From Escherichia phage phi456, in the sequence record OR339795: a stretch of 64,000 nucleotides of DNA. One strand, given 5' to 3'. Position 1 is the first letter of the stretch. The number at the start of each line of letters is the position of its first letter. A program made the translations under genes and the position numbers. The notes below the pieces were generated by a model that saw only the letters and a list, made by a program, of their open reading frames with translations, did not search any database and was not told where the DNA came from. This document shows, in pieces, positions 34,015 through 61,196 of the stretch.

Positions 34015-35604
34015 TTACTTAATAAGCAGCGGTACGCCCTGGATACGACGGGCTACGCCAGTCGGGCAGCAGGCCCAGACTACTTCCCATTTATCGAATT
34101 CCGCCTGCGTAACTTTCAGCACATACGGTTCTGTACCGTCAGCATCAGGATCACGAGGAGCCACCAGAGCGCCGGAGGCGACAAAGCGATCCAAAAGTTT
34201 GGTCATCCCTTTAGTCAGGCCAGACTCAGTAATACCGTCCGGGTTATGCTTCATCTGTCGGGCTAACTGGACAATGAAACGGCTGATTGCGTTCATCAGG
34301 GATGGGACGTGCTGGAAATGCAGATAGTTGTCCTGCGTGCAGCAAGTTAAAGCATCATCGATGATCATCTGGCCCGAAGTACCTACAGATACTTTATTGA
34401 GTCGGCCCTTGACCATAGCTTCTTCGTCCGGGGTGTCTTCAGGATACAGCGGCTGAAGTGATGCACGAGCAATGACGGCACGTTCTTCACCAGCCGGTGA
34501 GTAATGCCAACCGCCGACATCGGAGTTTTTCTTGACGCCACGAGCTTTCGCCGCATACGCCGCGCCAGACAGACCGAAGACCACGCGGGATTGGGTCCAT
34601 TTGTCTTTGCAGGAGAACGGGAAATGATAGACAGCACAGCTTACATAATCGGTACCAAGTAAACCGGTATCTTCAACAGCAGAGATCGCTTCCGTGTACG
34701 TCAATGTCGGTTTGACATCAAAGAAGCCATCAATCAAGCGATCAGAACAGATATTACCTAACGCAGTGATCGCCGCATTGTCATAGCAACCCAGGCCGAG
34801 AACAGCGGTGTACATGTACGGCGCATTGTTCAGCACTTTCACCGCACGCAGGTAAGCAGCAGTGGAAATGTTCGACTGATCGCCGTTGGTACCGCCAGTG
34901 AACGCCAGCGATTTTTTATTTGTTACTTTCGCCGTCGAAATCAGCTCTTCATTAACAACCGCGCGCAGATATTTAGAACGGGCTTCCAGAGCCGTAGGCA
35001 GATAACACAAGCGGCCCATGTCATCTTTCGCTTCTTCCGCCAAAGACACAGTGTGTGTCTCCAGGGTCGTTACCACACCGAGCGAAGTCGTCTGGGTCAG
35101 TTTTAAGAGGAAGCGTTCATTACCCGCGCTGTCCGCTGTTGCCGTTTCGATGGTTAACTCACGGGTAGGAGAAATACACGGATCACCATCATCAACGTAG
35201 ATAGCAAAGGCTTCGCCGCTATCAAGTTCAATTTCAGAACCGTATGGCAACGCACTGTAAGCCGGTTCGCCTGATTCATCGAACATAATAATCGGGAACT
35301 TCGCATCATCCGGAACAGCACGGACAACATAACCAGACGTTTGCTGAATAGCTTCGTACACATGGCGAATTGGTTCGAACTGTGAGCCGGAGGACGGCTT
35401 CAGCGGTTCGCCGAGAACATCTTCGTAATTGGACTCAGTAACCGCAAGAACAGTAAACGGCTTGCCACGCGCAAATACGCCAATACCAGCCCACAAGCTG
35501 CTATTTAATACAACACCGGTAGATAACGTCGCATCGGCATTGATCGGGCTAACAGCGACACCTGATGCATTACCTAATGACTGTTGAATTGAATATTGAG
35601 ACAT
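34015..35604 (-). CDS. tail sheath protein (P1 gp22-like)
   Basis: 529-aa ORF between the capsid-like gene and smaller tail genes; size and position fit a contractile sheath. Confidence 0.45.
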   Translation of the reverse strand: MSQYSIQQSLGNASGVAVSPINADATLSTGVVLNSSLWAGIGVFARGKPFTVLAVTESNYEDVLGEPLKPSSGSQFEPIRHVYEAIQQTSGYVVRAVPDDAKFPIIMFDESGEPAYSALPYGSEIELDSGEAFAIYVDDGDPCISPTRELTIETATADSAGNERFLLKLTQTTSLGVVTTLETHTVSLAEEAKDDMGRLCYLPTALEARSKYLRAVVNEELISTAKVTNKKSLAFTGGTNGDQSNISTAAYLRAVKVLNNAPYMYTAVLGLGCYDNAAITALGNICSDRLIDGFFDVKPTLTYTEAISAVEDTGLLGTDYVSCAVYHFPFSCKDKWTQSRVVFGLSGAAYAAKARGVKKNSDVGGWHYSPAGEERAVIARASLQPLYPEDTPDEEAMVKGRLNKVSVGTSGQMIIDDALTCCTQDNYLHFQHVPSLMNAISRFIVQLARQMKHNPDGITESGLTKGMTKLLDRFVASGALVAPRDPDADGTEPYVLKVTQAEFDKWEVVWACCPTGVARRIQGVPLLIK

Positions 35605-35618
35605 AACTTTCCCTGTTA

Positions 35619-35640
35619 TGCGCCCCGCACGGGGCGCTAT
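35619..35640 (-). terminator. hairpin between capsid-like and sheath-like genes
   Basis: GCGCCCCGCACGGGGCGC perfect stem. Confidence 0.4.
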
Positions 35641-35663
35641 GTTAAACGGAGAACTTCCCCTGA

Positions 35664-37391
35664 TTACTCAGAGTCACCGGCATCAATCGTGTCGCCGCTT
35701 ATAAAGTTAAGCCCGCCTTTTTTGGCCATTGTCAGCGTTACACGAGTGAAGTAATCAGCGCCGTTGCGTGGGTGCATATCGTTGATAGCCGAACCCCACA
35801 GCGTGGTACGGTTGACCAGCGCCGGAGTGGTCGGATGCTGGAACGGGATGGCCGGGACAGCATCACCAGTCACGAAGCCTGCTTTACCCGGATTTTCATC
35901 ACGGACGTAGCACAGCACATCCATCGAGCTGAACTGAATGTTCTCTGTCGTTAAGTTCTTACAAATACCAGCAGGTACTTCGTACACTTTCACGTTACCG
36001 AACAGGGTACCGATGTAGTGAACATACGGAGTCTGGATATAGTCTTCGGCTGGCTGGAAGAAATCCTTCGGCAACTGTTTGAAGAAAGATGCTGCATCAG
36101 CACCAGCAAACATCCCCATCGCACCAGAAGATTTAACGCGCTCAATAATGTCGCGATATACAGTCTGGAATTTGCCACGAATGATGGTTGCCCATACATC
36201 AAAGGACTGGTTAACCGGCAGAGCGATGTCAAAGGTGACGGTCGCAAGAGTACGCCAGATCATGATGTGAAGACGCAGCATATCCTGTTCATGAGACAGG
36301 TATTCCTTCAGGGTGCGGAACTGTAGGGAACCCAGGTCCAGACCAAATTCACGCTGTGCTTCATACGCCGCCTGTACCGTGTGCTCAGCCGCGATAACGA
36401 ACTGACTTGGGAACAGGGTGTATTTCTTCATTTCGTGGTTGATCAGCGGGATCAGCTCAGGAGCGGCTTCAATATTGATTTCCGTCTCAATTGCGATCTC
36501 AGTGCCTTTATCCGGCGCTTTGGAGAACGACAGGGCAATCTGACCAATGTTGTAGTTCAGAGAGCAGGTAACAGTGATTTGCTCACCAGCAGCATTAGTA
36601 AACGAGTGAAGTAGGCTGCCGGAACCGTTATCAACAACAGACTTAATACGGTTAACGTAGATGTTAGTGCGACCTTTTCGGATTGGTACATTCTGGCCTT
36701 CGAAGTCTTCCATCTTGAAGGTTGCGGTTTTGCTGGTGCCATCGGAGCTTGCCACCAGCACATAGCGGCGACGTAACTGGCTGTACACACCGACGGATTG
36801 CATGTCCAGAACATCACCAGCAGCATAAGAACCAAAAGATGAACCTGCCACGTTAAAGACTTCATAGATGTCGGACTGGTCACGCGTAACCGGAATGAAG
36901 GTACACGCATCAGCGGTAGCTGCCCCCAACTGAACAGGCAGGATCATCGCGAGGAATAAAGGCAGACGCATAACACCGTCAGAAACGCTCATCATCTCTG
37001 CTGCGACGGATTCCAGCATCGCTTTATTAGTGGCATCCATGCTATTGCGGGTGGACTCAATCAGGCAGTTTTCCAGCGTCTGGTGGCAGGAGGCCAGAAT
37101 TTCCGGACGCGGCATAGATTTATGTGCTGCGGCGTAGTCAGCCAGTGCACTTGCCCACGCTGTAGCGATTTGAGCGGTGGCATTATCAGAGATACCCGCA
37201 AAAACCGGGTCTTTACGTGCAGCTTCAAGGATAGATGCGGCACGCGCGGCATCATCTTTAATGAATTGGTTATCAGTACCGAACTGCGCAGTGCTTGCCC
37301 AGCCAAGCACAGCTTTAGAGCGTTTTGCGATATCTGCAATACGATTCTGGTATTCGCGTAAGTTACTCAATTTACTCTTCCTTAAACACAA
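35664..37391 (-). CDS. major capsid protein (P1 gp23-like)
   Basis: 575-aa ORF adjacent to parS, as gene 23 is in P1; assignment by synteny and size. Confidence 0.45.
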   Translation of the reverse strand: MCLRKSKLSNLREYQNRIADIAKRSKAVLGWASTAQFGTDNQFIKDDAARAASILEAARKDPVFAGISDNATAQIATAWASALADYAAAHKSMPRPEILASCHQTLENCLIESTRNSMDATNKAMLESVAAEMMSVSDGVMRLPLFLAMILPVQLGAATADACTFIPVTRDQSDIYEVFNVAGSSFGSYAAGDVLDMQSVGVYSQLRRRYVLVASSDGTSKTATFKMEDFEGQNVPIRKGRTNIYVNRIKSVVDNGSGSLLHSFTNAAGEQITVTCSLNYNIGQIALSFSKAPDKGTEIAIETEINIEAAPELIPLINHEMKKYTLFPSQFVIAAEHTVQAAYEAQREFGLDLGSLQFRTLKEYLSHEQDMLRLHIMIWRTLATVTFDIALPVNQSFDVWATIIRGKFQTVYRDIIERVKSSGAMGMFAGADAASFFKQLPKDFFQPAEDYIQTPYVHYIGTLFGNVKVYEVPAGICKNLTTENIQFSSMDVLCYVRDENPGKAGFVTGDAVPAIPFQHPTTPALVNRTTLWGSAINDMHPRNGADYFTRVTLTMAKKGGLNFISGDTIDAGDSE

Positions 37392-37504
37392 GGCACTTGT
37401 GTGAATCCCTTTTCGGAAGAGATTTTATTGAAAGTCACTTGTTGACTTTCTCGTGACAAGCAATTTTTTTATTTTTTTCGGGAGTAGGGGAGGAAGGTAA
37501 AATC

Positions 37505-37590
37505 CAAGGTGAAATCGTGGCGATTTCACCTTGAAATTTTAGATGGATTTACTTTAAAAACAGTAGTTTAATAGTGAAATTTGAATGGCG
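37505..37590 (-). promoter_or_regulatory. parS: parS partition site (ParB boxes flanking an IHF site)
   Basis: Reverse complement reads TCGCCATTCAAATTTCACTATTAAACTACTGTTTTTAAAGTAAATCCATCTAAAATTTCAAGGTGAAATCGCCACGATTTCAC: ATTTCAC heptamers (box A) and TCGCCA hexamers (box B), matching P1 parS as recalled. Confidence 0.75.
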
Positions 37591-37595
37591 AAAGT

Positions 37596-38597
37596 TTAAG
37601 GCTTCGGCTTTTTATCGAGGCTCTTTCTAAGGATATGCCCAATCATCCTGTCGAGTTCTTCCTGTAGCTCTTTTGAAAGTCGATTAAACTCATAAGAAAA
37701 TGCACGGCCTTTCACGCGCTTCCTTGCAAAGCGATCCTTGTCCTCAAATTTCCATAATTCAGTAACTACGGACTTATCTTTAGAACCTTTATCCGTGAGT
37801 AGTGAAGCTTCCTTTGTTATCAAGCGCAGGATTTTATTTTTAACTTCATCTTCGGCCATTTCTTCAATGGATAAGATGTCGTTTATTTCCGGGGATATGT
37901 TTTGAATAAGCTGATCAAACTCTAAATTCTTGTTCCCCATTTCGTCGCCAACAGCACAAAGCGTTTTGTAGTCCGAAAAGGTTAATTCCGACTGCACAGG
38001 GAAAAGGGCGACTAATTCTTCCGGAGCACTCGCTGCCTGGAGAGCACGCGTGACCTTCGCCTGAGATAGCCCTTCTTTGGCTGCAATATCCTTCTGACTC
38101 ATCCCATCATTTTTCATTCGCATCAAACGCAGACCTATTTCTCGAATGCTGTGCTGCAATGCTGTCTGAACGTCTTTCGCTAAATTTTGCGCTTCCTGAA
38201 CGCTGATCTCCTGGTCCGTGACTAAAACCCGCAACCCTACGTTCTCTAAGATGGCAGAAGCTCGACGCCGGGAACCATCCAAAATTTCAATTTTCCCTGT
38301 AGCCCGTCTAACACCTATTGCAGGGTAAAATTGCTGATGCTTAATAGTGCTTCGGATACTTTTTAATGATTTTGGCGTAAGAGATGCCTGGTCACGCCCG
38401 TTGTTATGCTGATCAACAAAGGTATCGCTTTCTACCTGGTTCGGAGGTATTACCTCTTCAATAAATGTGGCCTGGCGACCAGTTGATAACTTGAATACCT
38501 GCTCGACTCGATCGCCAGAGGCTGAAGAACTATCAAATCCGCTTAATATTGAAGGATTAAGGGTTCGCCCAATTGTTGGTCTGTTTTTCTTTGACAT
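37596..38597 (-). CDS. parB: partition protein ParB
   Basis: 333 aa (P1 ParB size), downstream of parA and next to parS. Confidence 0.9.
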   Translation of the reverse strand: MSKKNRPTIGRTLNPSILSGFDSSSASGDRVEQVFKLSTGRQATFIEEVIPPNQVESDTFVDQHNNGRDQASLTPKSLKSIRSTIKHQQFYPAIGVRRATGKIEILDGSRRRASAILENVGLRVLVTDQEISVQEAQNLAKDVQTALQHSIREIGLRLMRMKNDGMSQKDIAAKEGLSQAKVTRALQAASAPEELVALFPVQSELTFSDYKTLCAVGDEMGNKNLEFDQLIQNISPEINDILSIEEMAEDEVKNKILRLITKEASLLTDKGSKDKSVVTELWKFEDKDRFARKRVKGRAFSYEFNRLSKELQEELDRMIGHILRKSLDKKPKP

Positions 38598-38613
38598 GGG
38601 GGTTTCTTACTCC

Positions 38614-39810
38614 TCAGTTAGATCTGATAAATTCAATACGGTCAAAAACTGCTTTAGCAAAATCTTCCGCAGCAATTCGCGCGTTCTTCAATGCATCAGC
38701 ACTACCAACATACGTTGCCGGGTTAGCTGAAATAACAGTGTCAAAAGACTCGCCGCAGCGTTCAAAACCGTCAAGGCGAGGGAGGACAACATCAAGCATA
38801 TCCCCACCGAACACTTCTTTAGCCAGGCTATGGCAATACTTATGGTCTGCCTTGTTACTCAACTTGGACATAAAACCAATGTTAGTTGCAAGCTGACACT
38901 CGCAGCCTTCATCCGAAATGAGTTTCACCAACTCAGGAAGGCGGGCAACGTATTTAAGCGATGAGTGGAAATCAACCGTTGCAGGCGGCAGAGGTGTAAA
39001 CAGTATATTGGCCGAGGCCAAAGCATTTTTCAGGAAGGCGTCAAGGTGAGGACCACTATCAACGAGGATAAAGTCATAATCGCTCTTCAGCTTATCAATC
39101 ACATTTTCTTTCAGGACTGCATGGATGTTCTGACCCGGTAGATGCTCATTGCACAGCTCTCTCCAATCGGATGCAATAAAGGCATCGTCAATCGACGCAG
39201 GCATAACGTCAACCCCAGGTACAACAGAAGGAACAATAAACTCCTCTAACAGCTCTTCACGGCTTACATTCTGCAACATAGCCTGTGCAGATGTTGCGTT
39301 TACGATACCAATAGAGTGTTTATGGCTTAAAAACATCGTTGCTGAAGATTGCGGATCAAGGTCAATAACCAGAATCCTTAAATCTTCCATCAGAAGATGA
39401 GGATGAGCACGCATTGCATGCGCCAGAGAAACCGTCGATACAGTTTTTGACACACCGCCTTTAAGATTGGAGATGAAAATCACATACGCTTCGCTGTAGC
39501 GATCCCGGTATTTTGGCACTCCGCGATGTTCATATATGTCAATGATGTTCTGAATTGACATCGCATATTTCATTGAAGAGCCAGCAGGGCGTTTATCGAA
39601 AACATAACCCTTTTCTTCCATTTCACTTACGGCATAGTCAACGTTCGCACGAGTCAGTAGAGGCAATTTTGCCAGTGCCGCTTTCGCATAGACCTGGTAA
39701 AACTCGTTCGCGTGTAGCTCATCCTTTTGCAACTGTACTTGTTCAGTCAGAACATTGAGCATTCTATTTGCTCTTTGAGCAACCTTGTGAAGCTGGCTGG
39801 AATCACTCAT
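38614..39810 (-). CDS. parA: partition ATPase ParA
   Basis: 398 aa; deviant Walker A NLKGGVSKTVST; long N-terminal DNA-binding extension as in P1 ParA. Confidence 0.9.
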   Translation of the reverse strand: MSDSSQLHKVAQRANRMLNVLTEQVQLQKDELHANEFYQVYAKAALAKLPLLTRANVDYAVSEMEEKGYVFDKRPAGSSMKYAMSIQNIIDIYEHRGVPKYRDRYSEAYVIFISNLKGGVSKTVSTVSLAHAMRAHPHLLMEDLRILVIDLDPQSSATMFLSHKHSIGIVNATSAQAMLQNVSREELLEEFIVPSVVPGVDVMPASIDDAFIASDWRELCNEHLPGQNIHAVLKENVIDKLKSDYDFILVDSGPHLDAFLKNALASANILFTPLPPATVDFHSSLKYVARLPELVKLISDEGCECQLATNIGFMSKLSNKADHKYCHSLAKEVFGGDMLDVVLPRLDGFERCGESFDTVISANPATYVGSADALKNARIAAEDFAKAVFDRIEFIRSN

Positions 39811-39956
39811 CGAAAGCCATCCTTTATGCTGTATTTTTGAATTTAATTAAAAATGCTGCATAAAATAATAATGTATGCGTAGATGCTTGTACATAGCATT
39901 CTCTGCATGTTTGGTTCATTTTGCACGATTGAGAGTTACAAGGAGGGCACAAAAAA

Positions 39957-39971
39957 GCCCCGTTCAGGGGC
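39957..39971 (-). terminator. rho-independent terminator after the T5orf172 gene
   Basis: Minus strand reads GCCCCTGAACGGGGC followed by TTTTTTGTG, immediately upstream of the parA promoter region. Confidence 0.6.
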
Positions 39972-39978
39972 ATCAGTG

Positions 39979-40788
39979 TTATTTGCTAAGAGCAGCGAAT
40001 AATCGTTCGAAATCGATAGTATCTATAGCACGCGTAAGCGCCGGAAGTTCAGCCTCAAAGTACCCGTGTCGATCGTAAAAGAAGGGACCGAAGAGCGAGG
40101 CATGTTGGATTCTACTTCGCCCCAGCCCGGACACACAGTTAAGCCCATTACCGGCTAAAAGGCTAAAAAACTTCTCTGGATTATCGTGGTAAAGCTGGGA
40201 ATCAATGGTGGCGGTTAACTCTTCCATAGGGAAGCACACCCGCCCTGTATCCCAGGGATATTTAGTCCGAAGCATAAACATTGCTTTCAGCAATTCACAT
40301 TGAGCGCGGATCGCGTCCGGTTCATAGCCAGATATGGAGACATAAGCCACGTCCCTCATTCCTGCGTCATCTTTGAAAGTCACGATAGAAGTAACATCCA
40401 GCTCTTTTTCGAAAGAGCAAGCAGCATCTACTGGACGCTGAAGTAAATCATTCGACTTAATGCGCTCGAGAATCCCTCCCCACATATCATTTAGATATTC
40501 GATATGAGCCAAAACCTTATCAAGACACTCTCGTGTAAACCATTCAGTATGCCCGCCACCGGCGCTTTTCTCCCACGGCGCATTCCAGGGGAAAAAGGTT
40601 GCGTGTAAAGCCCGCTCAAGATTAACCATTGCCAAACGCGTACCACGATAGACCCGTGAAAGCGCAAAATCGGGACTCACTTGTAGCCCTTTAAACCGTG
40701 CCAATGGACCACATGAAATGCCGATTTTAAAAGTATCTCCGTTCTCTGGCACCAGAACGTAGAGGTAGTGTTGTTTCTCTTCTTGCAT
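39979..40788 (-). CDS. T5orf172 (GIY-YIG-like) domain protein, cargo gene between parA and incA iterons
   Basis: 269 aa; N-terminus YLYVLVPENGDTFKIGIS...LERALHATF...GGHTEWF matches the T5orf172 signature; C-terminal 170 aa unassigned. Confidence 0.6.
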   Translation of the reverse strand: MQEEKQHYLYVLVPENGDTFKIGISCGPLARFKGLQVSPDFALSRVYRGTRLAMVNLERALHATFFPWNAPWEKSAGGGHTEWFTRECLDKVLAHIEYLNDMWGGILERIKSNDLLQRPVDAACSFEKELDVTSIVTFKDDAGMRDVAYVSISGYEPDAIRAQCELLKAMFMLRTKYPWDTGRVCFPMEELTATIDSQLYHDNPEKFFSLLAGNGLNCVSGLGRSRIQHASLFGPFFYDRHGYFEAELPALTRAIDTIDFERLFAALSK

Positions 40789-40819
40789 ATCAATACCACT
40801 GCTTGATGAGAACCGCGCA

Positions 40820-41080
40820 AATGTTGACTATGCGCGAAGGTTAATGTGAATAGTTGACTATGCGCGATGTGACTACAGTCAAAAGTTGACTGTAGTCGAT
40901 TTAACTCCACCAAAGATCGACTATGTAAGATATTGTCGGGAGAAACGTTGACTATACGCGATGAAATGCCCCTAAAAGCCATCTCAATAGCGACTTGCAG
41001 AATATTGACGCCAGCAAAAATCCACCAGCGTCAACGAATGTCGCCTATAGTCAACTTCTCGCTATCGCATATAGTCAATA
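40820..41080. repeat. incA-like iteron cluster downstream of repA
   Basis: At least 7 copies of a GTTGACTATGCGCGA-like element in both orientations (e.g. 40823, 40853, 40885, 40947, 41042, 41067). Confidence 0.65.
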
Positions 41081-42001
41081 TTATGGATTGCGCTTATGGA
41101 TCTGGAAGCCGATTTTCCTGCCGTTTTTTATCTCTGAAAATTTAAGATATTCAATAGCTTCCAAATCTTTCATGGCTTTTCTGATAACGCTATTTTGCAC
41201 GCTAACGGATGATTTGAGATTAAGCCTCGCTCTAAGGCGCTCAATGCTGACAGGTGCCGGGTTGGCGGGTAGAGCCTCAAAGAATGTATACAGTACCTTG
41301 GCCGTCTCTTTGCGCCCTAGTTTATCCAGCATCTTCAGCTTCAGGATTCGCTTATAGTCAACATAGTAAAGTTCAGATAGCTGTTTCTGCGGCTGGATCT
41401 CGATAACATCAAGCTCGGTATTCAGGCTGCTATATGCCAACAAGTTGACGTTAATGTTATTGAGATGACCTTTTGCCGCCGGGAAGCGGAATTTGACAAC
41501 TGTCTGCTGAATGCGTGTCAGAGAGTCATCAATACTTTTACGGAACGCCTTTGAAAGGCGCTTACGTGGATAGCCGCATCGATCGGCAAACTCGGAGAAT
41601 GGCAGGGTGATTATGCCGTCATCATCAGGTGCGTAGTCAAACAACGCGGAGGTTATGCCCACCCACACCTTAAAATCAGTATCCATATCCAGGCGTGGAC
41701 CATGAATTTCAATTCCCTCATAGCCTTCCTGCTCAACAATTTTGAGGCTTGATAGTTCTTCAGTTGCGTTCGTTGTGTTTGTTGTAACTGACGATCCGCG
41801 ACGTAGCGCCACATTGGTAGATTTTAAGGTTGGCACAAACACACCTAAGCGCAACAAAGCGATGGGTTGTATAGTGCTGTTGTTATTGGGCTTCAGGCTG
41901 TGGATTTCTCCTGTATTTCCTGCAACTTCTTCAACGCTAAGGAAGCCTTTACTTTCTTCCGGCATCACGGTTTCTCCATGTGTGGCGCGGCCTGACGTCA
42001 A
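41081..42001 (-). CDS. repA: iteron-binding replication initiator RepA
   Basis: 306 aa; QPIALLRLGVFVP...GPRLDMDTDFKVWVGI...RLRARLNLKSSV resembles the P1/RepFIB RepA family; flanked by iterons on both sides. Confidence 0.8.
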   Translation of the reverse strand: MTSGRATHGETVMPEESKGFLSVEEVAGNTGEIHSLKPNNNSTIQPIALLRLGVFVPTLKSTNVALRRGSSVTTNTTNATEELSSLKIVEQEGYEGIEIHGPRLDMDTDFKVWVGITSALFDYAPDDDGIITLPFSEFADRCGYPRKRLSKAFRKSIDDSLTRIQQTVVKFRFPAAKGHLNNINVNLLAYSSLNTELDVIEIQPQKQLSELYYVDYKRILKLKMLDKLGRKETAKVLYTFFEALPANPAPVSIERLRARLNLKSSVSVQNSVIRKAMKDLEAIEYLKFSEIKNGRKIGFQIHKRNP

Positions 42002-42044
42002 TTTGGATGGCTGTTATCAACAGCTGTGAATATTCAGACTCTAA

Positions 42045-42260
42045 AATCGCTTACAGTCAATGTTTCTGTCGCGTATAGTCAACAATAAATCGCGTGCAGT
42101 CAACAATAAATCGTGCACAGTCAACATAAAATCGCGTATAGTCAATGTTGATCCCATTTCAGGCCAGTAATGACGCGGCTTACAGCGATCCGGGATCTTC
42201 TTTGGATCTTCCTAGGTTCTCTTTAGGATCTGTTTATTGGATCTATGCTGTGGATAAGTT
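42045..42260. promoter_or_regulatory. plasmid origin (oriR-like): 5 direct iterons, GATC cluster, DnaA boxes
   Basis: Iterons CGCGTATAGTCAACA-like at about 21-bp spacing (42048-42147); five GATC between 42187 and 42243; perfect DnaA box TGTGGATAA at 42249-42257 and near-box TTATCAACA at about 42014. Confidence 0.65.
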
Positions 42261-42479
42261 GAATAAACCGGCCAACAAAGCCGGTTGGAAGGAAGTCATA
42301 TTATTCTACGCTTTCGATAAGAAGACCATGTTCATAACATTTAAGCTCATCGCCTTCATACAGGAATTGGTATCCAACACCACCATCTTCATGGACATTA
42401 GGGAATAACTCATAACTCACTGAAGTGAACCGCCCCGGGAATCCTGGAGACTAAACTTCCTGAGAAAGAGGTAAACAGG

Positions 42480-42806
42480 ATGACTAAAAATACTCGTTTT
42501 TCCCCCGAAGTCCGTCAACGGGCAGTTCGTATGGTTCTGGAAAGTCAGGGCGAATATGACTCACAATGGGCGGCAATTTGTTCCATTGCTCCAAAGATTG
42601 GCTGTACGCCAGAGACTCTGCGCGTCTGGGTTCGCCAGCATGAGCGGGATACCGGGGGCGGTGATGGTGGGCTCACCACCGCTGAACGTCAGCGTCTGAA
42701 AGAGCTGGAGCGTGAAAATCGTGAACTGCGCCGCAGTAACGATATCCTTCGCCAGGCTTCCGCTTATTTTGCGAAGGCGGAGTTCGACCGCCTCTGGAAA
42801 AAATGA
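42480..42806 (+). CDS. IS629 transposase OrfA
   Basis: 108 aa [21 protein letters not shown]... HTH and leucine zipper. Confidence 0.85.
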
Positions 42807-43591
42807 TGCCACTGCTGGATAAGCTGCGTGAGCAGTACGGGGTCGGACCGGTATGCAGCGAACTGCATATTGCCCCGTCAACGTATTACCACTGTCAGCA
42901 ACAGCGACATCATCCGGATAAACGCAGTGCCCGTGCGCAGCGCGATGACTGGCTGAAGAAAGAGATACTGCGCGTATACGATGAAAATCATCAGGTGTAC
43001 GGTGTGCGTAAAGTCTGGCGTCAGTTGTTACGGGAAGGTATCAGGGTGGCCAGATGCACTGTGGCACGTCTCATGGCGGTTATGGGACTTGCCGGTGTTC
43101 TCCGGGGTAAAAAGGTCCGTACGACCATCAGCCGGAAAGCCGTTGCCGCAGGCGACCGCGTAAACCGTCAGTTCGTGGCAGAACGTCCTGACCAGCTGTG
43201 GGTAGCTGATTTTACTTACGTCAGCACATGGCAGGGCTTCGTCTATGTGGCGTTCATCATTGATGTATTTGCCGGATACATCGTGGGGTGGCGAGTCTCA
43301 TCGTCTATGGAAACGACATTCGTGCTGGATGCACTGGAGCAGGCGTTGTGGGCCCGCCGGCCGTCCGGCACAATCCACCACAGTGATAAAGGTTCTCAGT
43401 ATGTATCGCTGGCCTACACGCAGCGGCTTAAGGAAGCCGGCTTACTGGCCTCAACAGGAAGTACTGGTGACTCGTATGACAACGCGATGGCGGAGAGCAT
43501 CAATGGTCTTTACAAAGCGGAGGTAATACACCGTAAGAGTTGGAAAAACCGGACAGAAGTGGAACTGGCCACACTAACGTGGGTGGACTGG
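42803..43591 (+). pseudogene. IS629 transposase OrfB, truncated by IS2 insertion
   Basis: DDE transposase frame diverges after ...TLTWVDW at the IS2 boundary; the remaining C-terminus ([28 protein letters not shown]) is found at 44923-45030. Confidence 0.8.
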
Positions 43592-43602
43592 TGGATTTGC
43601 CC

Positions 43603-44508
43603 CTATATTTCCAGACACCTGTTATCACTTAACCCATTACTGGCCTGCTGCCGCAGATATTCCCGTGGCGAGCGATAACCCAGTGCACTATGCGGATGCC
43701 ATTCGTTATAATGCTCGAACGCCTCTGCAAGGTTCTTTGCTGCCGTTAACCCGTCTGGTTTAGGCATGATACTGATGTAGTCACGCTTTATCGTTTTCAC
43801 GAAGCTCTCTGCTATGCCGTTACTCTCTGGACTCCGCACCGCCGTGTTCTTCGGTTCAAGCCCCAACATCCGGGCAAACTGCCGTGTTTCATTAGCCCGG
43901 TAGCATGAACCATTATCCGTCAGCCACTCTACTGGAGACGCCGGAAGCTCGTTGCCGAAGCGGCGTTCCACCGCTCCCAGCATTACGTCCTGTACTGTTT
44001 CACTGTCGAAGCCGCCCGTAGTGACTGCCCAGTGCAGTGCCTCACGGTCACAGCAGTCCAGCGCGAACGTGACTCGCAGTTTTTCTCCGTTATCACAGCG
44101 GAACTCGAACCCGTCAGAGCACCATCGTTGATTGCTTTCTTTCACGGCCACTTTGCCAGTATGTGCCCGTTTCGATGGCGGTACAGCGGTTTTTCGCTCA
44201 AGCAACAGCGCATTCTGGCGCATGATCCGGTAAACACGTTTGGCATTGATCGCAGGCATACCATCAAGTTCGGCCTGTCTGCGAAGCAGCGCCCATACCC
44301 GACGATAACCATACGTGGGCAGCTCTCCGATAACATGGTGTATACGGAGAAGCACATCCGTATCATCTGAGTGACGGCTGCGGCGACCATCTTTCCAGTC
44401 ATCGGTTCGTCTGAGAATTACGTGCAACTGCGCACGCGACACCCGGAGACAACGGCTGACTAAGCTTACTCCCCATCCCCGGGCAATAAGGGCGCGTGCG
44501 CTATCCAC
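43603..44508 (-). CDS. insD: IS2 transposase InsD (OrfB)
   Basis: 301-aa DDE transposase recognised as IS2 OrfB. Confidence 0.9.
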
Positions 44509-44876
44509 TTTTTTGCACGCCCGTATTCAACGGCTTCTTTAAGGAGTTCATTTTCCATCGTTTTTTTGCCGAGCAGGCGCTGGAGTTCTTTAATCTGCTT
44601 CATGGCAGCAGCAAGTTCAGAGGCAGGAACGACCTGCTCTCCTGCGGCCACAGCAGTAAGACTTCCCTCCTGGTATTGCTTGCGCCAGAGAAATAACTGG
44701 CTGGCTGCCACACCGTGTTGCCGGGCAACAAGGGAGACCGTCATTCCCGGTTCAAAACTCTGCTGAACAATAGCGATCTTTTCCTGTGTAGTACGCCGTC
44801 TGCGTTTCTCCGGTCCTAAGACATCAATCATCTGCTCTCCAATGACTAGTCTAAAAACTAGTATTAAGACTATCAC
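44466..44876 (-). CDS. insC: IS2 InsC (OrfA)
   Basis: 136 aa [24 protein letters not shown]... Confidence 0.9.
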
Positions 44877-45071
44877 TTATTTAAGTGATATTGGTTGTCT
44901 GGAGATTCAGGGGGCCAGTCTAACTGGTATAACAATCGACGATTGCTGGAAAGGCTGGGCCATATTCCTCCGGCAGAAGCAGAAAAAGCTTATTATGCTT
45001 CCATCGGAAATACTGATCTGGCAGCCTGAGTTCACAGATAAAACACTCTCCAGGAAACCCGGGGCGGTTCA

Positions 45072-45254
45072 AACTGCAGTTGCCATGTTTTACGGCAGTG
45101 AGAGCAGAGATAGCGCTGATGTCCGGCAGTGCTTTTGCCGTTACGCACCACCCCGTCAGTAGCTGAACAGGAGGGACAGCTGATAGAAACAGAAGCCACT
45201 GGAGCACCTCAAAAACACCATCATACACTAAATCAGTAAGTTGGCAGCATCACC
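45072..45254 (-). mobile_element. IS1 left-end fragment (about 183 bp including the inverted repeat)
   Basis: Sequence identical in kind to the insA-proximal end of the full IS1 copies, ending ...GTTGGCAGCATCACC; truncated by IS629. Confidence 0.7.
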
Positions 45255-45462
45255 CAGGTGCTGGTGAGAATGAGTGCAAGGACGGCTGAAGAATATTTTT
45301 TCATACCAACACCTTCTGTAGGTTAAAAAGAGAGGAGCTTTTCCGGAGTTATATTAATAATTCATTCATCAGAGAAAACTGTTTTTTTGTTACGGCAATA
45401 ATAATGAGACAATTCCTGGTAAGCCCGGTGCCGTTCTACGGTTGCACCGGGAGGGCTGGAAC

Positions 45463-45777
45463 TCAGTGCGGAGATTTTTTACCATCCTGGCGATATAAAT
45501 GATCATGTGCTGTTTTGCGATCCCTGTATATGCCCATTTCTTTTTCCGTCTGTATTGCAGAACTGCGTAATAATCTGAAGGAGAACTCTTCCTGGCTGGT
45601 TGCTCTCTGTGATTTCATTTTTGCACGTTTCAGGCAGTGCTGTATCCGTCTCTGGATACAGATCCGATCATCTTCCTGCAGGTAGTTCAGCAGCAATTCC
45701 TGCCAGCGTGCAGCGGCTCTGCGCCATAATCCCCGCTGTTTGAGCTCTTCAGCTTTTTTATCAGTAATCATATTCAC
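45463..45777 (-). CDS. PerC/Pch-family transcriptional regulator-like protein
   Basis: 104 aa; KKAEELKQRGLWRRAAARWQELL matches the PerC-family N-terminal signature as recalled. Confidence 0.55.
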   Translation of the reverse strand: MNMITDKKAEELKQRGLWRRAAARWQELLLNYLQEDDRICIQRRIQHCLKRAKMKSQRATSQEEFSFRLLRSSAIQTEKEMGIYRDRKTAHDHLYRQDGKKSPH

Positions 45778-45794
45778 CTCTGCTCTGGTCGGTC

Positions 45795-46595
45795 ATGCTT
45801 TCTTCCCGGTATGTTATAGTTATTAAGATACTTTTGTCCCTGTTCTGTTCCGGAGTGAACATGATTTTTGTCTGTTCTGTTGTACTGGCTGACAAGGCAT
45901 TCACCCTGCAGTTTGCCGGGAAAATGCTGTCCCTTTCTGCAGGAGATGTGCTTCTGATTGATGATACTGATCGTGAGGATTTTCAGCCTCATGCTGCGCA
46001 TATCACTGAGGTGCGGCTGGATGAAAATATCATCCGCAGATATCTGGAGAGTTGTGGCGGCAACCGGGAGGCCGACAACACGGTTTCTTCTGGTTTCATC
46101 AGAGTGGCCTTTGCTCATCCTGCGTTGTTGCGTGACGTTATGCATCATCTGAATTCGGGAGGATTTGTTCATCCCGGATTTTCCGAGCAGATGTTTTTTT
46201 CCTGCATTGCTGTCTTTGCATCAAAAAAAGGCTTTCTTCCTTTGTTGCTGGGCGGAATGCTTTCTGTGGCCGGGAGAGTGAGGCATATCATCTGTACTGA
46301 CTTTTCACGCCAGTGGAAGCTGCGGGATGTCAGCAGTCGTTTGTATATGAGTGAAAGTCAGCTGAAAAAGAAACTGAAGGAAGAAGGATGTTCGTTCACC
46401 GGAGTGCTTCTGGATGTGAGAATGGGCTATGCACGCCGTCTGTTACAGGCCCGTCTGCCGGTCAACAGGGTGGCCGCGCAGTGTGGTTATGTAAGCACAT
46501 CTTATTTTATCTGCGTGTTCAGGGAATGTTTTGGCGTCACGCCTCACCGGATGCTGGCGCTTCAGGAGCACGGGCAGCATAAAAGTGAATGCTGA
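45795..46595 (+). CDS. AraC/XylS-family transcriptional regulator
   Basis: C-terminal dual HTH (...RLLQARLPVNRVAAQCGYVSTSYFICVFRECFGVTPHRM); alternative start at Met 45861; divergent from the PerC-like gene. Confidence 0.75.
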   Translation: MLSSRYVIVIKILLSLFCSGVNMIFVCSVVLADKAFTLQFAGKMLSLSAGDVLLIDDTDREDFQPHAAHITEVRLDENIIRRYLESCGGNREADNTVSSGFIRVAFAHPALLRDVMHHLNSGGFVHPGFSEQMFFSCIAVFASKKGFLPLLLGGMLSVAGRVRHIICTDFSRQWKLRDVSSRLYMSESQLKKKLKEEGCSFTGVLLDVRMGYARRLLQARLPVNRVAAQCGYVSTSYFICVFRECFGVTPHRMLALQEHGQHKSEC

Positions 46596-46754
46596 GTTTG
46601 AATTATTCTGAAGAACGGCGGGCATTTTATGGAAACGGCACATTTCCGTGTCTCTGTGGTCATTCCCGATTGCTGTTGACGCATCGCCACTCACCGGAAA
46701 TGTGCCGGAATATTTTAATCGTTCTTCACCGTCTGTGAAGGTCCTGTGCTTACA

Positions 46755-46950
46755 TTACTGAGCGGAAAATGACCTCAATTTCCTCCTGTGTAGCCTGAAT
46801 CGGGTTTGTCAGACCACATGCATCCTTCAGGGCATTAGCGGCCAGAACAGGGATATCCTCTTCTCTGACGTTCAGGGCTTTCAGACCTGTCGGGATATTC
46901 ACTTTTCCGGCCAGTTCCCTGATTGCAGATATACTGTCAGCGCCAGTGAT
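46755..46950 (-). pseudogene. C-terminal fragment of an iron-containing alcohol dehydrogenase-like gene
   Basis: Minus-strand translation ...[45 protein letters not shown] then stop; N-terminal part is cut by the IS end at 46951. Confidence 0.3.
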
Positions 46951-48420
<1,470 letters not shown>

Positions 48421-48677
48421 GCGTTGACAGCGGGTTCCTGAGTCCGGTGAAGCGCCGGTTACTGGAAAATGTTGTGTACGTCATAACAGAAACGGAGAGA
48501 AAAACGGCGATGCAAATCAGGCGGAGAAGGGTGTATCAGCGGTTACTGAAGGTTGACCCGCTGAAGTGCATCCTGTGCGGAGGTCAGATGCGGTTTACGG
48601 GGCTGAAGCGGGGCTACCGTCTGGCAGAGCTGGTCATGATGCATGAGCCACTGGCACGACAGCGGGTATACAGCTGA
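48421..48677 (+). pseudogene. possible transposase C-terminal fragment (Cys-rich)
   Basis: C-terminal part of ORF 48324..48677, ...PLKCILCGGQMRFTG...; family not assignable with confidence. Confidence 0.2.
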
Positions 48678-48773
48678 GAGCCGCAGAGGGGAAGTTGCGT
48701 CCATTTTTTGAGGAATGGAGCAAAAAATCATCACAGATATAAAAAATCAATCAATGAAAGCCATTTAATTGCC

Positions 48774-53240
<4,467 letters not shown>

Positions 53241-56893: not shown

Positions 56894-57417
56894 CGGTCAA
56901 TGGGGCCATCGACTGGCTGAACCGCGCTTCTTATTTTTTCACACTTGATCCATCGCCAGACAATATGCGGCGCGTTGGTCGTGGCCGCCGTCGCCGTGGT
57001 GTTTGTTATTGCATGGCACTACCCGATGTTAAAGAACGTGAAGTCAGAGACGGCGTTCTGTGCTTCCGTCGTGTGGCTGAACGTGGCATGGAGCCAAAAA
57101 ATACGAATTCTCCCGAGTGGTGGGCGTGGCGCTGGTCCGCACATTTCGGACTTTGCGAAGATGAGAATGAAATTGCCAGCGGCAATAGTGCATATGGCGC
57201 TCTGAACCTGGCTTTCCATATCGGATTCAAACATGTCGCCCTGGTGGGCGTTGACGCTACACAAGAACCACGCGTTCACTCCGGCGGCACGCCAAAAAAT
57301 CTAAGTCACCTGCCTTTGTTATTCCAGTCTGCGCGTGAACGGATTGACGTTGTTTCATGCGGGAAAATGGGAGGTATTCCGCAGATGACTCTTAAAGAAT
57401 GGCTGAAGAATACATGA
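56791..57417 (+). CDS. GSGPS-motif Rossmann-like protein, paralog 2
   Basis: [30 protein letters not shown]...; the same motif layout as paralog 1. Confidence 0.4.
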
Positions 57418-58091
57418 TGGCACCAACAATTTATCACCGTATCGACGGTACCAAATACAGGAATATCTGGGTTGTTGGTGATCTGCATGGTTGCTACACC
57501 AGACTGATGTCCGAACTCCATCGTGTGGATTTTGACCCGGCGCAGGATTTACTGATATCGGTCGGCGACCTTATCGATCGCGGTACTGAAAATGTCGAAT
57601 GTCTGGAACTATTGCAGATGCCCTGGTTCAGGGCAGTAATGGGGAACCATGAGCGGTTGATGCTCGATGCGTTAAGTCCTGATGGCAACGTGAATAACTG
57701 GCTAATGAATGGCGGACAATGGTTCTTCATGCTGGACACTGATCAGGAAATATTAGCCAGGGCGCTGGTGGAGTTGGTAAGACGACTGCCCTATATCATT
57801 GAGTTGAACACCGGGCAAGAAACTATCGTTATAGCCCATGCCGACTATCCGGATAATGAATATCAATTCGGTAAGGAGGTGCCGCTTTTCAACGTTGTCT
57901 GGGCGCGCGAGCGTATCAGTGATTCGATGGATGATATTGGTGGCGAAATTTCGGGCGCAGATCGTTTTATCTTTGGTCACACTCCGGTGAAAAGCCCGAA
58001 GACATTCTGGAATCAGCATTATATCGACACTGGTGCCGTATTTTGCGGAAACCTGACATTGATGAAAGTGAAAGGTGATGGTGCAGCATGA
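57399..58091 (+). CDS. PPP-family Ser/Thr protein phosphatase (lambda-phosphatase/PrpA-like)
   Basis: Motifs GDLHG, GDLIDRG, GNHE present in order. Confidence 0.8.
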
Positions 58092-58741
58092 AGATTGCTT
58101 TAGTTCTTCGCTCTGGTGGCGACTATAACGCTTCCGATGTGCAGTGGCTGGTTAATCAACTGCCAAAAGGCTATGAAATTATTTGCCTGACAGACCTGAA
58201 GCGTTTACATGTACCTGGCGTCAAAGTTATCCCATTGATCAACCAGTGGCAAAAGTGCCGTGGCTGGTGGGCGAAAATCGAGTTGTTCCGACCGGATATA
58301 ACCGATGATCTGTTCTATCTGGATTTGGACACGGTTATTGCCGGTGATATACGCCCAATCCTTGAGAATCCACCAACCAGCTTCACCATGCTTAGGGATT
58401 TTTACCATCCACAATATCGTGGTAGCGGTGCCCTGCGGATACCAAATAGTGTAAAAGCGCATATCTGGAGTTCATTCTGGCAAGATCCGGAAGGTTGGAT
58501 TTCTCGTTGTGTCACTACTGAGTGCTGGGGTGATCAGGGGTTCTTACGGAAGGTTATGGGCGATGATACACCAGCATTTCAGGATCTGTATCCAGGATGG
58601 TTTGTAAGTTACAAGGCCGATGTTGTGGAACCTGGTTCAAAATATGCGAGCGCGCGTTACTCCAGGGGGAATGGGGCATTACCAAAGGACTGCCGAATAA
58701 TTTTTTTCCACGGCAAACCGCGACCTCGCGAAGTGTCATAG
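58088..58741 (+). CDS. hypothetical protein with DXD motif (possible nucleotide-sugar transferase)
   Basis: 217 aa; [12 protein letters not shown]; translationally coupled to the phosphatase gene. Confidence 0.3.
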
Positions 58742-58790
58742 GATTGGCTTCCCCTTACCAGCTCGTTTTTTGAGCAAGAATCAGAATAAT

Positions 58791-58856
58791 ATTGCTCTAA
58801 TAATTCCATGTTTTTAAAACGCGATGTACACTCATCACGTTTTTTATTAGAGCAAT
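58791..58856. promoter_or_regulatory. pair of inverted C1 operator-like sites
   Basis: ATTGCTCTAATAATTCC (58791-58807) and inverted TTATTAGAGCAAT (58844-58856), flanking a putative promoter for the downstream operon. Confidence 0.5.
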
Positions 58857-58870
58857 CCATAAGGTGCACT

Positions 58871-59089
58871 ATGTGGCCATTCCGACGGAAATATCACTAC
58901 TGGCTGATCGCCTTTGTTACGCCGACCGGCGGTATCAGGCATGTCATTACCAGGTATCGCAACAAGAGACTCACCTTAGCCAGAATTTTACAGGCTGCCA
59001 TAGGTGAGGGACTGGATACAAATTGCGTAGTCCTTCCACCTTCATACTTAGGAAAAATGACCGAAGCACAAGCTAATACGGAACTTTGA
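58871..59089 (+). CDS. small basic protein, first gene of the C1-operator-associated operon
   Basis: 72 aa from Met 58871 (RBS AAGGTG); stop 1 nt before the next ATG. Confidence 0.3.
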   Translation: MWPFRRKYHYWLIAFVTPTGGIRHVITRYRNKRLTLARILQAAIGEGLDTNCVVLPPSYLGKMTEAQANTEL

Positions 59090-59090
59090 A

Positions 59091-60353
59091 ATGAGCACTT
59101 CAGCACAAAACCAATCAATCGAAAATGTATCTATCCCTGACGTCCTGAATGCCGGTATCCCGGCCATTATCCAGAACATCCGGGCCGCGCAACGCCGCGT
59201 TAGTTGTGATGACCTCACAGCGCGTTTTTTTGATAATGCGGTTCAGTCAGCGGAGATGCTTCACGCACAGCTTATTGATGTTTATAACGCAGAAGCTGAT
59301 AGCCATAACTCCCTGGTAGATGCAGCTGAAAATATGCAGTTGGATCTTGGTCTGAAGGGTAAAGAAATTGAAGAGCTTCAGCTGCAAATTGAACATTTGA
59401 AACGCCAGCAACAGGACGCGATCGACGATGCGACGCATGACGCCAACCAGCGTGCTGATAATGCCGAACGTATAAGCATTGAGCTGGAAACAAAACTCAA
59501 TGAAATGACCGCGATGGTTGAACTGCGGAACTCACAGATTTCAACGCTAAAATCTCAATATAAAGAGATCATGAAACTTGATCCTTTTAACCTTGAGAAA
59601 CGCTATAACAAAGCTAAAAGCGAGCGACAGGAACTGCGTAAGCAGGTCGCCGACCTTAACCAACAGTTCAAAAAAACTATTAAAGATGCAAGCGAAGCGC
59701 GCGTGGCATTTGCTAATAAAAAAGCAGAGGTTACCGCGCTGGTTAATGAGAATGCCAAATTTGCGACGCTCAAGAAGGAAATGTATGGCATTACTGAGCG
59801 CCGTTTCCCTGCAAGCAAACTTCATCCGACGTTAGGGCAAATCTCCTTCTTCCCGCGCCTCCTGGCTTATGGGATCTCATCGCCTAAAGAGTTCAATAAC
59901 GAGCGTCCTTATATCGTTTCTAAGCTGGACTTTGCTTATCAGTTCTGCTGCGACATGGGCTATGCCATTGATATCCGAATCAACGAATGGTTGATGCCAA
60001 ACTTCCAGCCGTTGGCCATTTTCCGCGAGTTCCAGCCGGAAGGTTGGGTAGAGTTCTTCCATGAATTGATCTGTAAAGAGATGGAAAGCCGCCGCCCGGA
60101 ATTGGTCCGTCGAGTTGAGTGGGCGCAAGAGGTTATGTTGGCAGATGCAGAGCTGCCGTTCGAACCGGAATTCATTGATGATCTGGCAACTAAAGGGTTG
60201 CATACCCTGTTTGATGTGGTTACCCGCCGTCATGAGCAGTTGGTTGTCGAATTGGGTTTAGAGGAAACAGCGGCAAGAAGACTTCTCGATGTTTGCTATG
60301 CACGTAGCGATGCATGGGAAAAAGAGAACGGCGGCACTATTTACGTCCGCTGA
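59091..60353 (+). CDS. hypothetical protein, N-terminal coiled coil plus C-terminal globular domain
   Basis: 420 aa; residues about 40-240 heptad-rich (ELQLQIEHLKRQQQDAIDD...). Confidence 0.4.
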   Translation: MSTSAQNQSIENVSIPDVLNAGIPAIIQNIRAAQRRVSCDDLTARFFDNAVQSAEMLHAQLIDVYNAEADSHNSLVDAAENMQLDLGLKGKEIEELQLQIEHLKRQQQDAIDDATHDANQRADNAERISIELETKLNEMTAMVELRNSQISTLKSQYKEIMKLDPFNLEKRYNKAKSERQELRKQVADLNQQFKKTIKDASEARVAFANKKAEVTALVNENAKFATLKKEMYGITERRFPASKLHPTLGQISFFPRLLAYGISSPKEFNNERPYIVSKLDFAYQFCCDMGYAIDIRINEWLMPNFQPLAIFREFQPEGWVEFFHELICKEMESRRPELVRRVEWAQEVMLADAELPFEPEFIDDLATKGLHTLFDVVTRRHEQLVVELGLEETAARRLLDVCYARSDAWEKENGGTIYVR

Positions 60354-60425
60354 TAGTTACAGTGTCACTTTTAATGCTGGTGGAGTGCGCCCACCAGCAT
60401 TTTTTTCGTCCAATGAGGAGGGCAT

Positions 60426-60932
60426 TTGAGTATTTTCAATAAACACGCACACCAGGAACGTCCGTACATCGTCATAGTAGATATTGATGGAACGATATCA
60501 GAGGCAACGGAAGACAGGCTGCATTTACTTCCACCACCTGGCAAAGGTGCATTAACAGAGCACTGGAACGAGTTTAACCTTGCCTGTGACACTGATGCTC
60601 CCATCACTCCAGTTATTGATATGGTGCGCCAGTTGTCCAGCATTTACACGCTCTGGTTTGTAACCGGGCGCTGTGAGATAGCCAGGGATAAAACACGAGC
60701 TTGGTTGCGTAAGCACGTAACAAACGGGGCTGAGCCTTTGCTATCTATGCGTCCTGCCACCGATGACAGAAATGACGGCCCAGCAAAGATTGATCTCCTT
60801 AAGAAAATTGGTATAAGCAAAATTGCGTTCGCGCTGGAAGATAAGATTGAAGTGGCGCATGTTTTCAGGAGGCACGGCGTGCTTACGTTAATGGTCAGGG
60901 AGTATGAAAATGCGCTTCTTCATCAACAATAA
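60426..60932 (+). CDS. HAD-superfamily phosphatase-like protein
   Basis: 168 aa; motif I VIVDIDGT (DxDGT), later FVTGR and K...D elements. Confidence 0.5.
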   Translation: MSIFNKHAHQERPYIVIVDIDGTISEATEDRLHLLPPPGKGALTEHWNEFNLACDTDAPITPVIDMVRQLSSIYTLWFVTGRCEIARDKTRAWLRKHVTNGAEPLLSMRPATDDRNDGPAKIDLLKKIGISKIAFALEDKIEVAHVFRRHGVLTLMVREYENALLHQQ

Positions 60933-60947
60933 TTGCTCTAATAAACC
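60931..60947 (+). promoter_or_regulatory. C1 operator-like site
   Basis: AATTGCTCTAATAAACC, overlapping the stop of the HAD-like gene and upstream of the small peptide ORF. Confidence 0.5.
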
Positions 60948-61030
60948 ATGATTTTTAAAAAAGAGAAAGTGAAAATAAAAACATGCCGCAAGGCGCGGCA
61001 TGTATCCAATCAATCACAGGAGCTGAAAAT

Positions 61031-61117
61031 ATGAACACGGCATTCAAAATCATTATGGCCGCGATCTATTTCTGGCTGTTCTCTATCACTTTTGGCGGCA
61101 TCGTCGCGCATGGGTAA
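61031..61117 (+). CDS. 28-aa hydrophobic peptide (candidate small membrane toxin or leader peptide)
   Basis: MNTAFKIIMAAIYFWLFSITFGGIVAHG; strong RBS AGGAG 9 nt upstream; structured leader CATGCCGCAAGGCGCGGCATG; not in the ORF track (under 60 aa). Confidence 0.35.
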   Translation: MNTAFKIIMAAIYFWLFSITFGGIVAHG

Positions 61118-61196
61118 GGGGAGTATATTAGCCATTTGAAACCCCACGGTCTCTTGCGGGTTTAATTAAGAACCCGCAAGAAAAACACGAATTGGG

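Follow-up and report, generated by a model that had tools for sequence, protein, structure and literature searches.

In this study, we analysed a 64,000-nucleotide stretch of the genome of Escherichia phage phi456 (sequence record OR339795; hereafter the window, to which all coordinates refer unless stated otherwise), and in particular the region in which its partition and replication functions lie side by side. From left to right, this region contains parS, parB, parA and their promoter, a gene of the T5orf172 family, an array of iterons, the initiator gene repA, an origin with a second iteron array, and the 3′ remnant of upfA. Sequence identities, iteron anatomy, breakpoints, protein fold and distribution could all be read directly from the data, and on these grounds it appears very likely that we are dealing with the region by which a P1-like phage-plasmid, belonging to the RCS47/SJ46/JL22/pO111_2 group, is maintained as a plasmid prophage, and in which a P1-type ParA–ParB–parS module has come to stand beside a p0111-type replicon.

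The stretch from gp23 through parS, parB and parA to the Ppar promoter (35000–39912) is 99.06% identical to P1 (NC_005856). ParB, encoded at 37596–38597 on the minus strand, is identical to P1 ParB at 333 of 333 positions and 43% identical to P7 ParB, and gives a Pfam ParB match (PF08775, E 1.6e-44). ParA, encoded at 38614–39810 on the minus strand and containing the Pfam domains HTH_54 and AAA_31, is identical at 397 of 398 positions (99.7%) to the P1 protein and 58% identical to that of P7. The RCS47 par proteins give the same values against the P1 and P7 records (ParB 100% and ParA 99.7% to P1; 43% and 58% to P7). The parS centromere, which is the incB determinant, was located at 37509–37591 (minus strand) by alignment to the annotated P1 parS (4610–4692 of the P1 record). 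Every box A and box B in it has the P1 sequence and not that of P7, with box B reading TCGCCA at both positions as in P1, while the box B sequences of P7 differ; the six differences from P1 fall in the spacer and in the annotated integration host factor (IHF) site. Between 37543 and 37568, two 3-nt blocks are unlike P1, one of them within the annotated IHF site (TTAACTGACTG in P1, TTAAACTACTG here). The Ppar promoter and ParA operator (39808–39893, minus strand) match features 6909–6994 of the P1 record, with one mismatch to P1 in the region up to approximately 39909. The module is thus a type Ia ParABS system with the species specificity and the incB determinant of P1; the likeness of parS, ParA and ParB to P1 had been recognized in a first-pass annotation of this DNA made from the sequence alone.

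The initiator gene repA (41081–41965, minus strand, preceded by GGAG) encodes a 294-residue protein of p0111 type, which is 42.3% identical to the experimentally characterised RepA of P1 (E 9e-71) and to that of P7, the latter two being identical to each other; it is thus not the essentially P1-identical RepA by which an IncY replicon is recognized. The Pfam profile Rep3_C matches the protein with 27.3 bits, above the cutoff of 21.1, and no match was obtained in NCBIfam. In a structural search with an AlphaFold2 model (predicted local distance difference test score 73.9), all top Foldseek matches were iteron initiators, namely RctB domains 2–3, RepE, pi, the WH1 domain of pPS10 RepA and TrfA, with template modelling scores that were low globally (0.3–0.4) and reached approximately 0.6 for single domains. 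RepA therefore shows both the homology and the WH1–WH2 fold of the Rep3/RepA iteron initiators. The RepFIB-type proteins (IncFIB, E. coli and Klebsiella) and the RepA of the SSU5 group of phage-plasmids belong to the same initiator family, with 44–49% identity over the full length; they are about as distant as P1 RepA, and most of them are longer (~325–340 residues).

The iterons differ as well. The 15-mer GTTGACTATACGCGA occurs in twelve copies (at most three mismatches), which within the 64 kb are confined to 40823–42146, and their consensus is (A/G)TTGACTrTnnGCGA, whereas the 19-bp IncY iterons, which form the incA and incC determinants, have the consensus GATGTGTGCTGGAGGGAAA in the annotated P1 record. 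When the iteron matrix was compared with that of the 14 P1 iterons, 1299 of 2000 column-shuffled controls reached the observed score, and a residual likeness between the p0111 and P1 iterons (shared ATGT...TG-like starts) was rejected because the matrix overlap is no better than that of shuffles. The first-pass annotation had described RepA as similar to that of P1 only at the family level and the iterons as unlike the P1 19-mers; comparison with the RepA proteins of P1 and P7 and with the P1 iterons bears out both statements, as neither component is identical to its P1 counterpart.

While the iteron sequences are unrelated, their arrangement is that of P1 in most respects. An incA-like control array (40823–41079) lies downstream of repA and, like that of P1 and P7, has two orientations and 30–32-bp spacing; it contains seven clear iterons and one degenerate iteron, where P1 has nine. 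In the first block, the cores at 40823, 40853, 40885, 40915 (degenerate) and 40947 share a single orientation opposite to the sense of repA, while the cores of the second block, at 41041 and 41065, are oriented in the repA sense, the last one abutting the repA stop codon as in P1 incA. Between the two blocks, at 41003–41034, there are inverted half-iterons (ATTGACGCCAGC ... GCTGGTG/GCGTCAAC), which resemble the inverted half-repeat operators of dimeric initiators in other iteron plasmids. Two diverged relatives of the module, L004 (E. coli contig from GCA_013513435) and L012 (Logan contig from ERR2144811), retain one ATTGACGCTGG copy at the equivalent site. A feature that P1 does not share is an iteron-like 15-mer inside repA, GTTGACTATAAGCGA (41348–41362, minus strand, codon position 604); no similar intragenic site was found in P1 repA. 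This 15-mer is unchanged in three repA lineages with 70–77% DNA identity, being present also in L004 (6604–6618) and L012 (6612–6626 of the respective contig), and none of its five codons shows a synonymous change, compared with 4–6 of 10 flanking codons. It may be a functional RepA site.

The five origin iterons (42047–42146, minus strand, incC-like) are direct repeats with cores at 42047, 42069, 42090, 42111 and 42132, and their spacing of 22, 21, 21 and 21 bp is that of P1 incC iterons 10–14. Between repA and these iterons lies a DnaA-box-like site with one mismatch, TTATCAACA (42014–42022, plus strand), at which both L004 and L012 have a perfect TGTGGATAA. On the outer side, repeats of the AGATCC type carry five clustered GATC (Dam) sites (42187–42243; GATC at 42187, 42194, 42205, 42227 and 42240), which can be aligned with the Dam-site region of P1 oriR. 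With five sites in 57 bp, this is the densest such cluster of the window (Poisson P for at least five per 60 bp, 4e-6). It is followed at the outer end of oriR, again as in P1, by the perfect DnaA box TTATCCACA (42249–42257, minus strand), one of only two perfect boxes in the window; its counterpart in the alignment is the perfect member of the P1 tandem pair, the second P1 box being mismatched. The five GATC sites and the perfect DnaA box had been seen in the first-pass annotation, to which two small corrections apply: there is a further, sixth GATC directly next to the outermost iteron, at 42150, and the outer DnaA box is single and not double as in P1. Tandem repeats at about two helical turns, a DnaA box and a presumptive opening region are thus all present.

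The boundaries of the P1-like sequence are sharp. On the left, identity to P1 at 99% ends at 39909–39913 (the blastn alignment ends at 39912), the pairwise break lying 16 bp upstream of the Ppar −35 element, and therefore the par promoter and operator are still those of P1. On the right, similarity resumes at 42151–42163 (at 42163 by blastn), approximately 12 bp beyond the outermost of the origin iterons and before the GATC cluster is reached. From there to 42425, the match to P1 has 82% identity and spans the clustered Dam sites and the DnaA box as well as the 3′ end of upfA; in RCS47, similarity resumes at the same point and continues at 97.8% identity to P1 across the next 3 kb. Between the junctions (39913–42162), the only DNA match to P1 is a single short one of 59 bp with 76% identity inside repA. 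The non-P1 segment of about 2.25 kb, in place of about 1.49 kb of P1, comprises the initiator-specific parts, that is both iteron arrays and repA, together with the additional T5orf172 gene, and its junctions are clean and free of insertion sequence (IS) elements. The boundary splits the origin into an initiator-specific half, the iterons, and a host-factor half, the Dam sites and the DnaA box. The combination of P1 par with a different replication module between P1-like flanks supports the interpretation of the first-pass annotation that the replication cassette may have been exchanged, and such a replacement has also been published, as detailed below.

The replicon could be assigned to p0111 by comparison with named relatives. 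RepA is identical at 292 of 294 positions (99.3%) to RepA of pO111_2 (NC_013370.1), a near identity to the p0111 reference, and the DNA matches this plasmid over 5026 bp at 98.6%. We take NC_013370 to be the RefSeq copy of AP010962, and pO111_2 of E. coli O111:H- 11128 to be the namesake of the PlasmidFinder type p0111. AP010962 is the p0111 reference cited in PMC11165635. Furthermore, RepA is 100% identical to that of RCS47 and 99.7% identical to that of JL22, which has been typed as p0111 (PMC9603915). The block from par to the origin is 98.7–99.8% identical in RCS47, SJ46, JL22, vB_EcoM-Ro157c2YLVW and three records labelled P1. Across these named relatives and pO111_2 (98.6–99.8% over par, T5orf172, incA-like array, repA and origin), gene order and P1-type par are alike and there are point differences only, except that in the window upfA is cut by an IS629-like element and that in pO111_2 the T5orf172 gene is split into two open reading frames. 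The backbone is that of a Punavirus: gp23, gp22, gp21 and par on the left are 99% identical to P1, and the best database matches are Punavirus records.

This type of replicon is widespread and the exchange that it represents is already known. In PLSDB, 392 plasmids encode a RepA of at least 99% identity, at least 382 carry the contiguous block of P1 par and p0111 replicon, and 392 carry the stretch from T5orf172 to the origin. It has been reported that repA′ (p0111) together with an unknown gene, gp57, replaces repA (IncY) in P1-like phage-plasmids, 24 of 55 of which are of p0111 type (PMC9603915); that in Salmonella 132 p0111 compare with 94 IncY elements, with 17 switches between the two inferred on the phage-plasmid tree (PMC11165635); and that SJ46 RepA is 42% identical to P1 RepA (PMC5241659). 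The change from IncY to p0111 is therefore a common and documented variant of the P1-like elements, and the additions made here are minor: the breakpoints, the conserved architecture and iteron map, the intragenic iteron, a related module elsewhere on another P1-like backbone, and the deficit in co-residence described below. Two p0111 P1-like plasmids in PLSDB (NZ_AP025206.2 and NZ_AP027705.1) bear the MOB-suite label ‘IncHI1B’, which conflicts with the sequence and was not used; it looks like a mis-assignment of the p0111 rep gene. NZ_AP025206.2 is typed as mobilizable with a MOBH relaxase, and no relaxase gene lies within the 10.7 kb examined; NZ_AP027705.1 carries annotated mobH and mobI genes.

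Where the module came from can be approached through its relatives. Among 5.8 billion proteins, the identities to RepA show a gap between approximately 84–85% and approximately 54%. Three relatives were found at 84–85%, and the two with readable context, L004 and L012, are both on P1-like backbones; the next relative in order of identity (about 53%) is encoded on a large Proteus contig. Both L004 and L012 have the same iteron core, origin layout and intragenic iteron as the window. The module of L004 is flanked by pmgB-like and tail-tube genes, without a T5orf172 gene and without adjacent par, on a contig that carries PmgB-, PmgC-, sheath- and tube-like genes. The order in L012 is upfC–upfB–ppfA–ori–repA–T5orf172–parA–parB, with every part diverged (RepA 84%, T5orf172 44%, ParA 89%, ParB 67%) and par of a third type. 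As the architecture and position of the module are P1-like and diverged copies exist in L004 and L012, the evidence favours the view that it is an old alternative replicon allele native to the P1-like elements, circulating among them by recombination in the conserved flanks, and not a foreign acquisition.

A different origin would be a recent capture of the cassette from an unrelated conjugative plasmid, for instance one of RepFIB type, by illegitimate or IS-mediated recombination. In agreement with this, RepA is annotated elsewhere as ‘RepFIB replication protein A’, it has slightly higher identity to IncFIB-type RepA proteins from Klebsiella and E. coli (45–49%) than to P1 RepA (42%), and the cassette brings with it a T5orf172 gene that P1 lacks. 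However, the 5.8 billion proteins include no RepA of 54–84% identity and the readable relatives above the gap sit in P1-like backbones; the module matches that of P1 in position between upfA and parA and in iteron number, spacing and orientation; no IS element lies at either junction and the Dam-site/DnaA half of the origin remains about 82% alignable with P1; and the diverged P1-like element L012 keeps the order ori–repA–T5orf172–parA–parB. Capture from a RepFIB plasmid was therefore rejected as the main explanation, outweighed by the gap in RepA identities, the P1-like layout and L012, and we regard it as improbable. Even less probable is that the replicon has decayed and the element is maintained by another replicon or by integration. 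It is true that upfA is truncated at 42426 by a nested IS629-like/IS2 insertion followed by IS-bounded cargo, and that 8 of the 465 places at which the cassette was found in E. coli genomes are chromosomal. However, repA is intact and encodes a protein identical to that of RCS47; the iterons, the GATC cluster and the DnaA box are likewise undamaged, and hundreds of circular 90–100-kb plasmids with p0111 as their replicon have the same elements with little or no change. The IS lies outside oriR. That RepA and the iterons are simply those of P1 (IncY) is ruled out by GATGTGTGCTGGAGGGAAA in P1 against GTTGACTATACGCGA here, by the 42% identity of RepA and by the lack of DNA similarity across 39913–42162 apart from the 59-bp match.

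It is thus our firm expectation that the p0111 replicon is an iteron-controlled theta replicon, homologous to the IncY replicon of P1 and of other specificity. Several observations weigh against this assignment of the region. The Pfam profile Rep3_N scores 22.0 on RepA, just below its cutoff of 22.4, and a sequence search of solved structures gave nothing meaningful (best E 0.39), for which reason the fold search was used. A consensus promoter scan revealed no convincing minus-strand promoter for repA, with overall counts equal to the shuffled expectation. A 7-bp gap relative to P1 leaves the single outer DnaA box. A flanking function has been lost, as the IS629-like element, which starts at 42426 (its end read from the sequence) and 170 bp beyond the DnaA box, cuts upfA in the window copy. 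Finally, in the literature searched we found no experiment on the p0111 replicon and no paper describing p0111 iterons.

For binding, initiation, handcuffing and incompatibility behaviour we reason by analogy with P1, and a mechanism of the P1/F type is the most likely one. According to this model, RepA monomers would bind the five origin iterons and, together with host DnaA bound at the box at 42249, would open the adjacent region with the five Dam sites, after which hemimethylation following initiation would lead to sequestration of the origin. As the iterons coincide in part with −35-like hexamers (TTGACT), RepA should repress repA by binding over them; the promoter scan having yielded nothing convincing, the argument for autorepression consists of the TTGACT within each iteron and the P1 analogy. 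The array downstream of repA would titrate RepA and handcuff origins, and in this way would set copy number and replicon-specific incompatibility.

These considerations lead to different expectations for the two halves of the maintenance region. RepA and the iterons have diverged together from those of P1, and therefore replication control should not cross-react with P1 or P7, so that incA and incC incompatibility would be lost. Conversely, the boxes of parS and the whole of ParB show full identity to their P1 counterparts, and therefore incompatibility through partition (incB) should persist. Implications for incompatibility had been raised in the first-pass annotation; they are expected to apply to replication control and not to partition, and thus stand in part. 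We searched complete E. coli genomes (n=5426) with each cassette separately and then with both concatenated. The p0111 cassette was present in 415 genomes and the IncY cassette in 361, with a union of 774, and the two occurred together in 2 of the 5426 genomes and never on one record, compared with approximately 27.6 expected if they were independent (Poisson P 4e-10), although independence is a crude model, as it disregards population structure, the sharing of phage immunity, and superinfection exclusion. The rarity of co-residence is consistent with retained incB incompatibility, and argues that two P1-like elements do not become freely compatible by a change of replicon alone.

The T5orf172/GIY-YIG-like gene (39979–40788, minus strand), which forms part of the cassette, is an 810-bp gene located between the control array and Ppar and absent from P1. 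Its product of 269 residues (Pfam T5orf172, E 4.7e-6) matches phrog_2876, of unknown function, over its full length, and searches with PADLOC and NCBIfam returned no match for the protein and identified no known defence system. A terminator-like hairpin, GCCCCTGAACGGGGC followed by TTTTTT, was found in a consensus scan downstream of the gene (39957–39971, minus strand) and may serve as its terminator. In essentially every carrier, the gene and p0111 repA are found linked. The protein forms one tight cluster (1241 member sequences), outside which there is a single distant homologue (44%), encoded in L012 (7001–7936) between repA and parA of that P1-like element, and it has thus diverged far faster than its L012 neighbours RepA (84%) and ParA (89%). 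In pO111_2 (NC_013370.1, 52496–53305), the gene is annotated as two open reading frames and is probably disrupted, in which case the replicon would not require an intact copy for its maintenance. One might imagine that the protein is a nuclease or exclusion factor directed against the IncY allele or its carriers, and that it promotes a homing-like replacement by way of the conserved flanks, par and oriR/upfA. If true, this would cover the frequent IncY/p0111 switches, the near absence of co-residence and the fast divergence in L012. However, the rare co-residence is explained more simply by the shared parS and shared phage immunity, and we consider such a role highly unlikely.

To the right of the origin, the 3′ remnant of upfA occupies 42299–42425 (minus strand; coordinates transferred from the RCS47 annotation), and the alignment with P1 ends at 42425. 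It is followed at 42426–45260 by a nest of IS elements, in which an IS629-like element (orfA at 42480–42806) is interrupted by IS2 (43603–44876, minus strand) and followed by a truncated IS1 end. The P1 backbone does not resume directly after this nest, and therefore a rearrangement or deletion is likely. An IS1-flanked cargo region (45463–53240) encodes a PerC-family activator (45463–45777, minus strand), an AraC-family regulator (45795–46595) and a 1165-residue autotransporter with pertactin, autochaperone and VirG-insertion domains (49743–53240, minus strand). They resemble virulence-type genes, here carried by a phage-plasmid. Further to the right (57399–63947) lie genes for a metallophosphoesterase, a PNKP-like phosphatase and a type I restriction HsdR subunit (61197–63947, minus strand), an accessory set common among P1-like plasmids.

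P1-like phage-plasmids spread extended-spectrum β-lactamase and virulence genes, and the type of replicon governs which of them share a cell and how typing tools class them. The dichotomy between IncY and p0111 already serves surveillance, and no new kind of system emerges from this window. Nevertheless, the iteron map, the exchange boundary inside the origin, and the near-zero co-residence despite differing replication controls may be useful for the design of p0111 incompatibility and mini-replicon studies.

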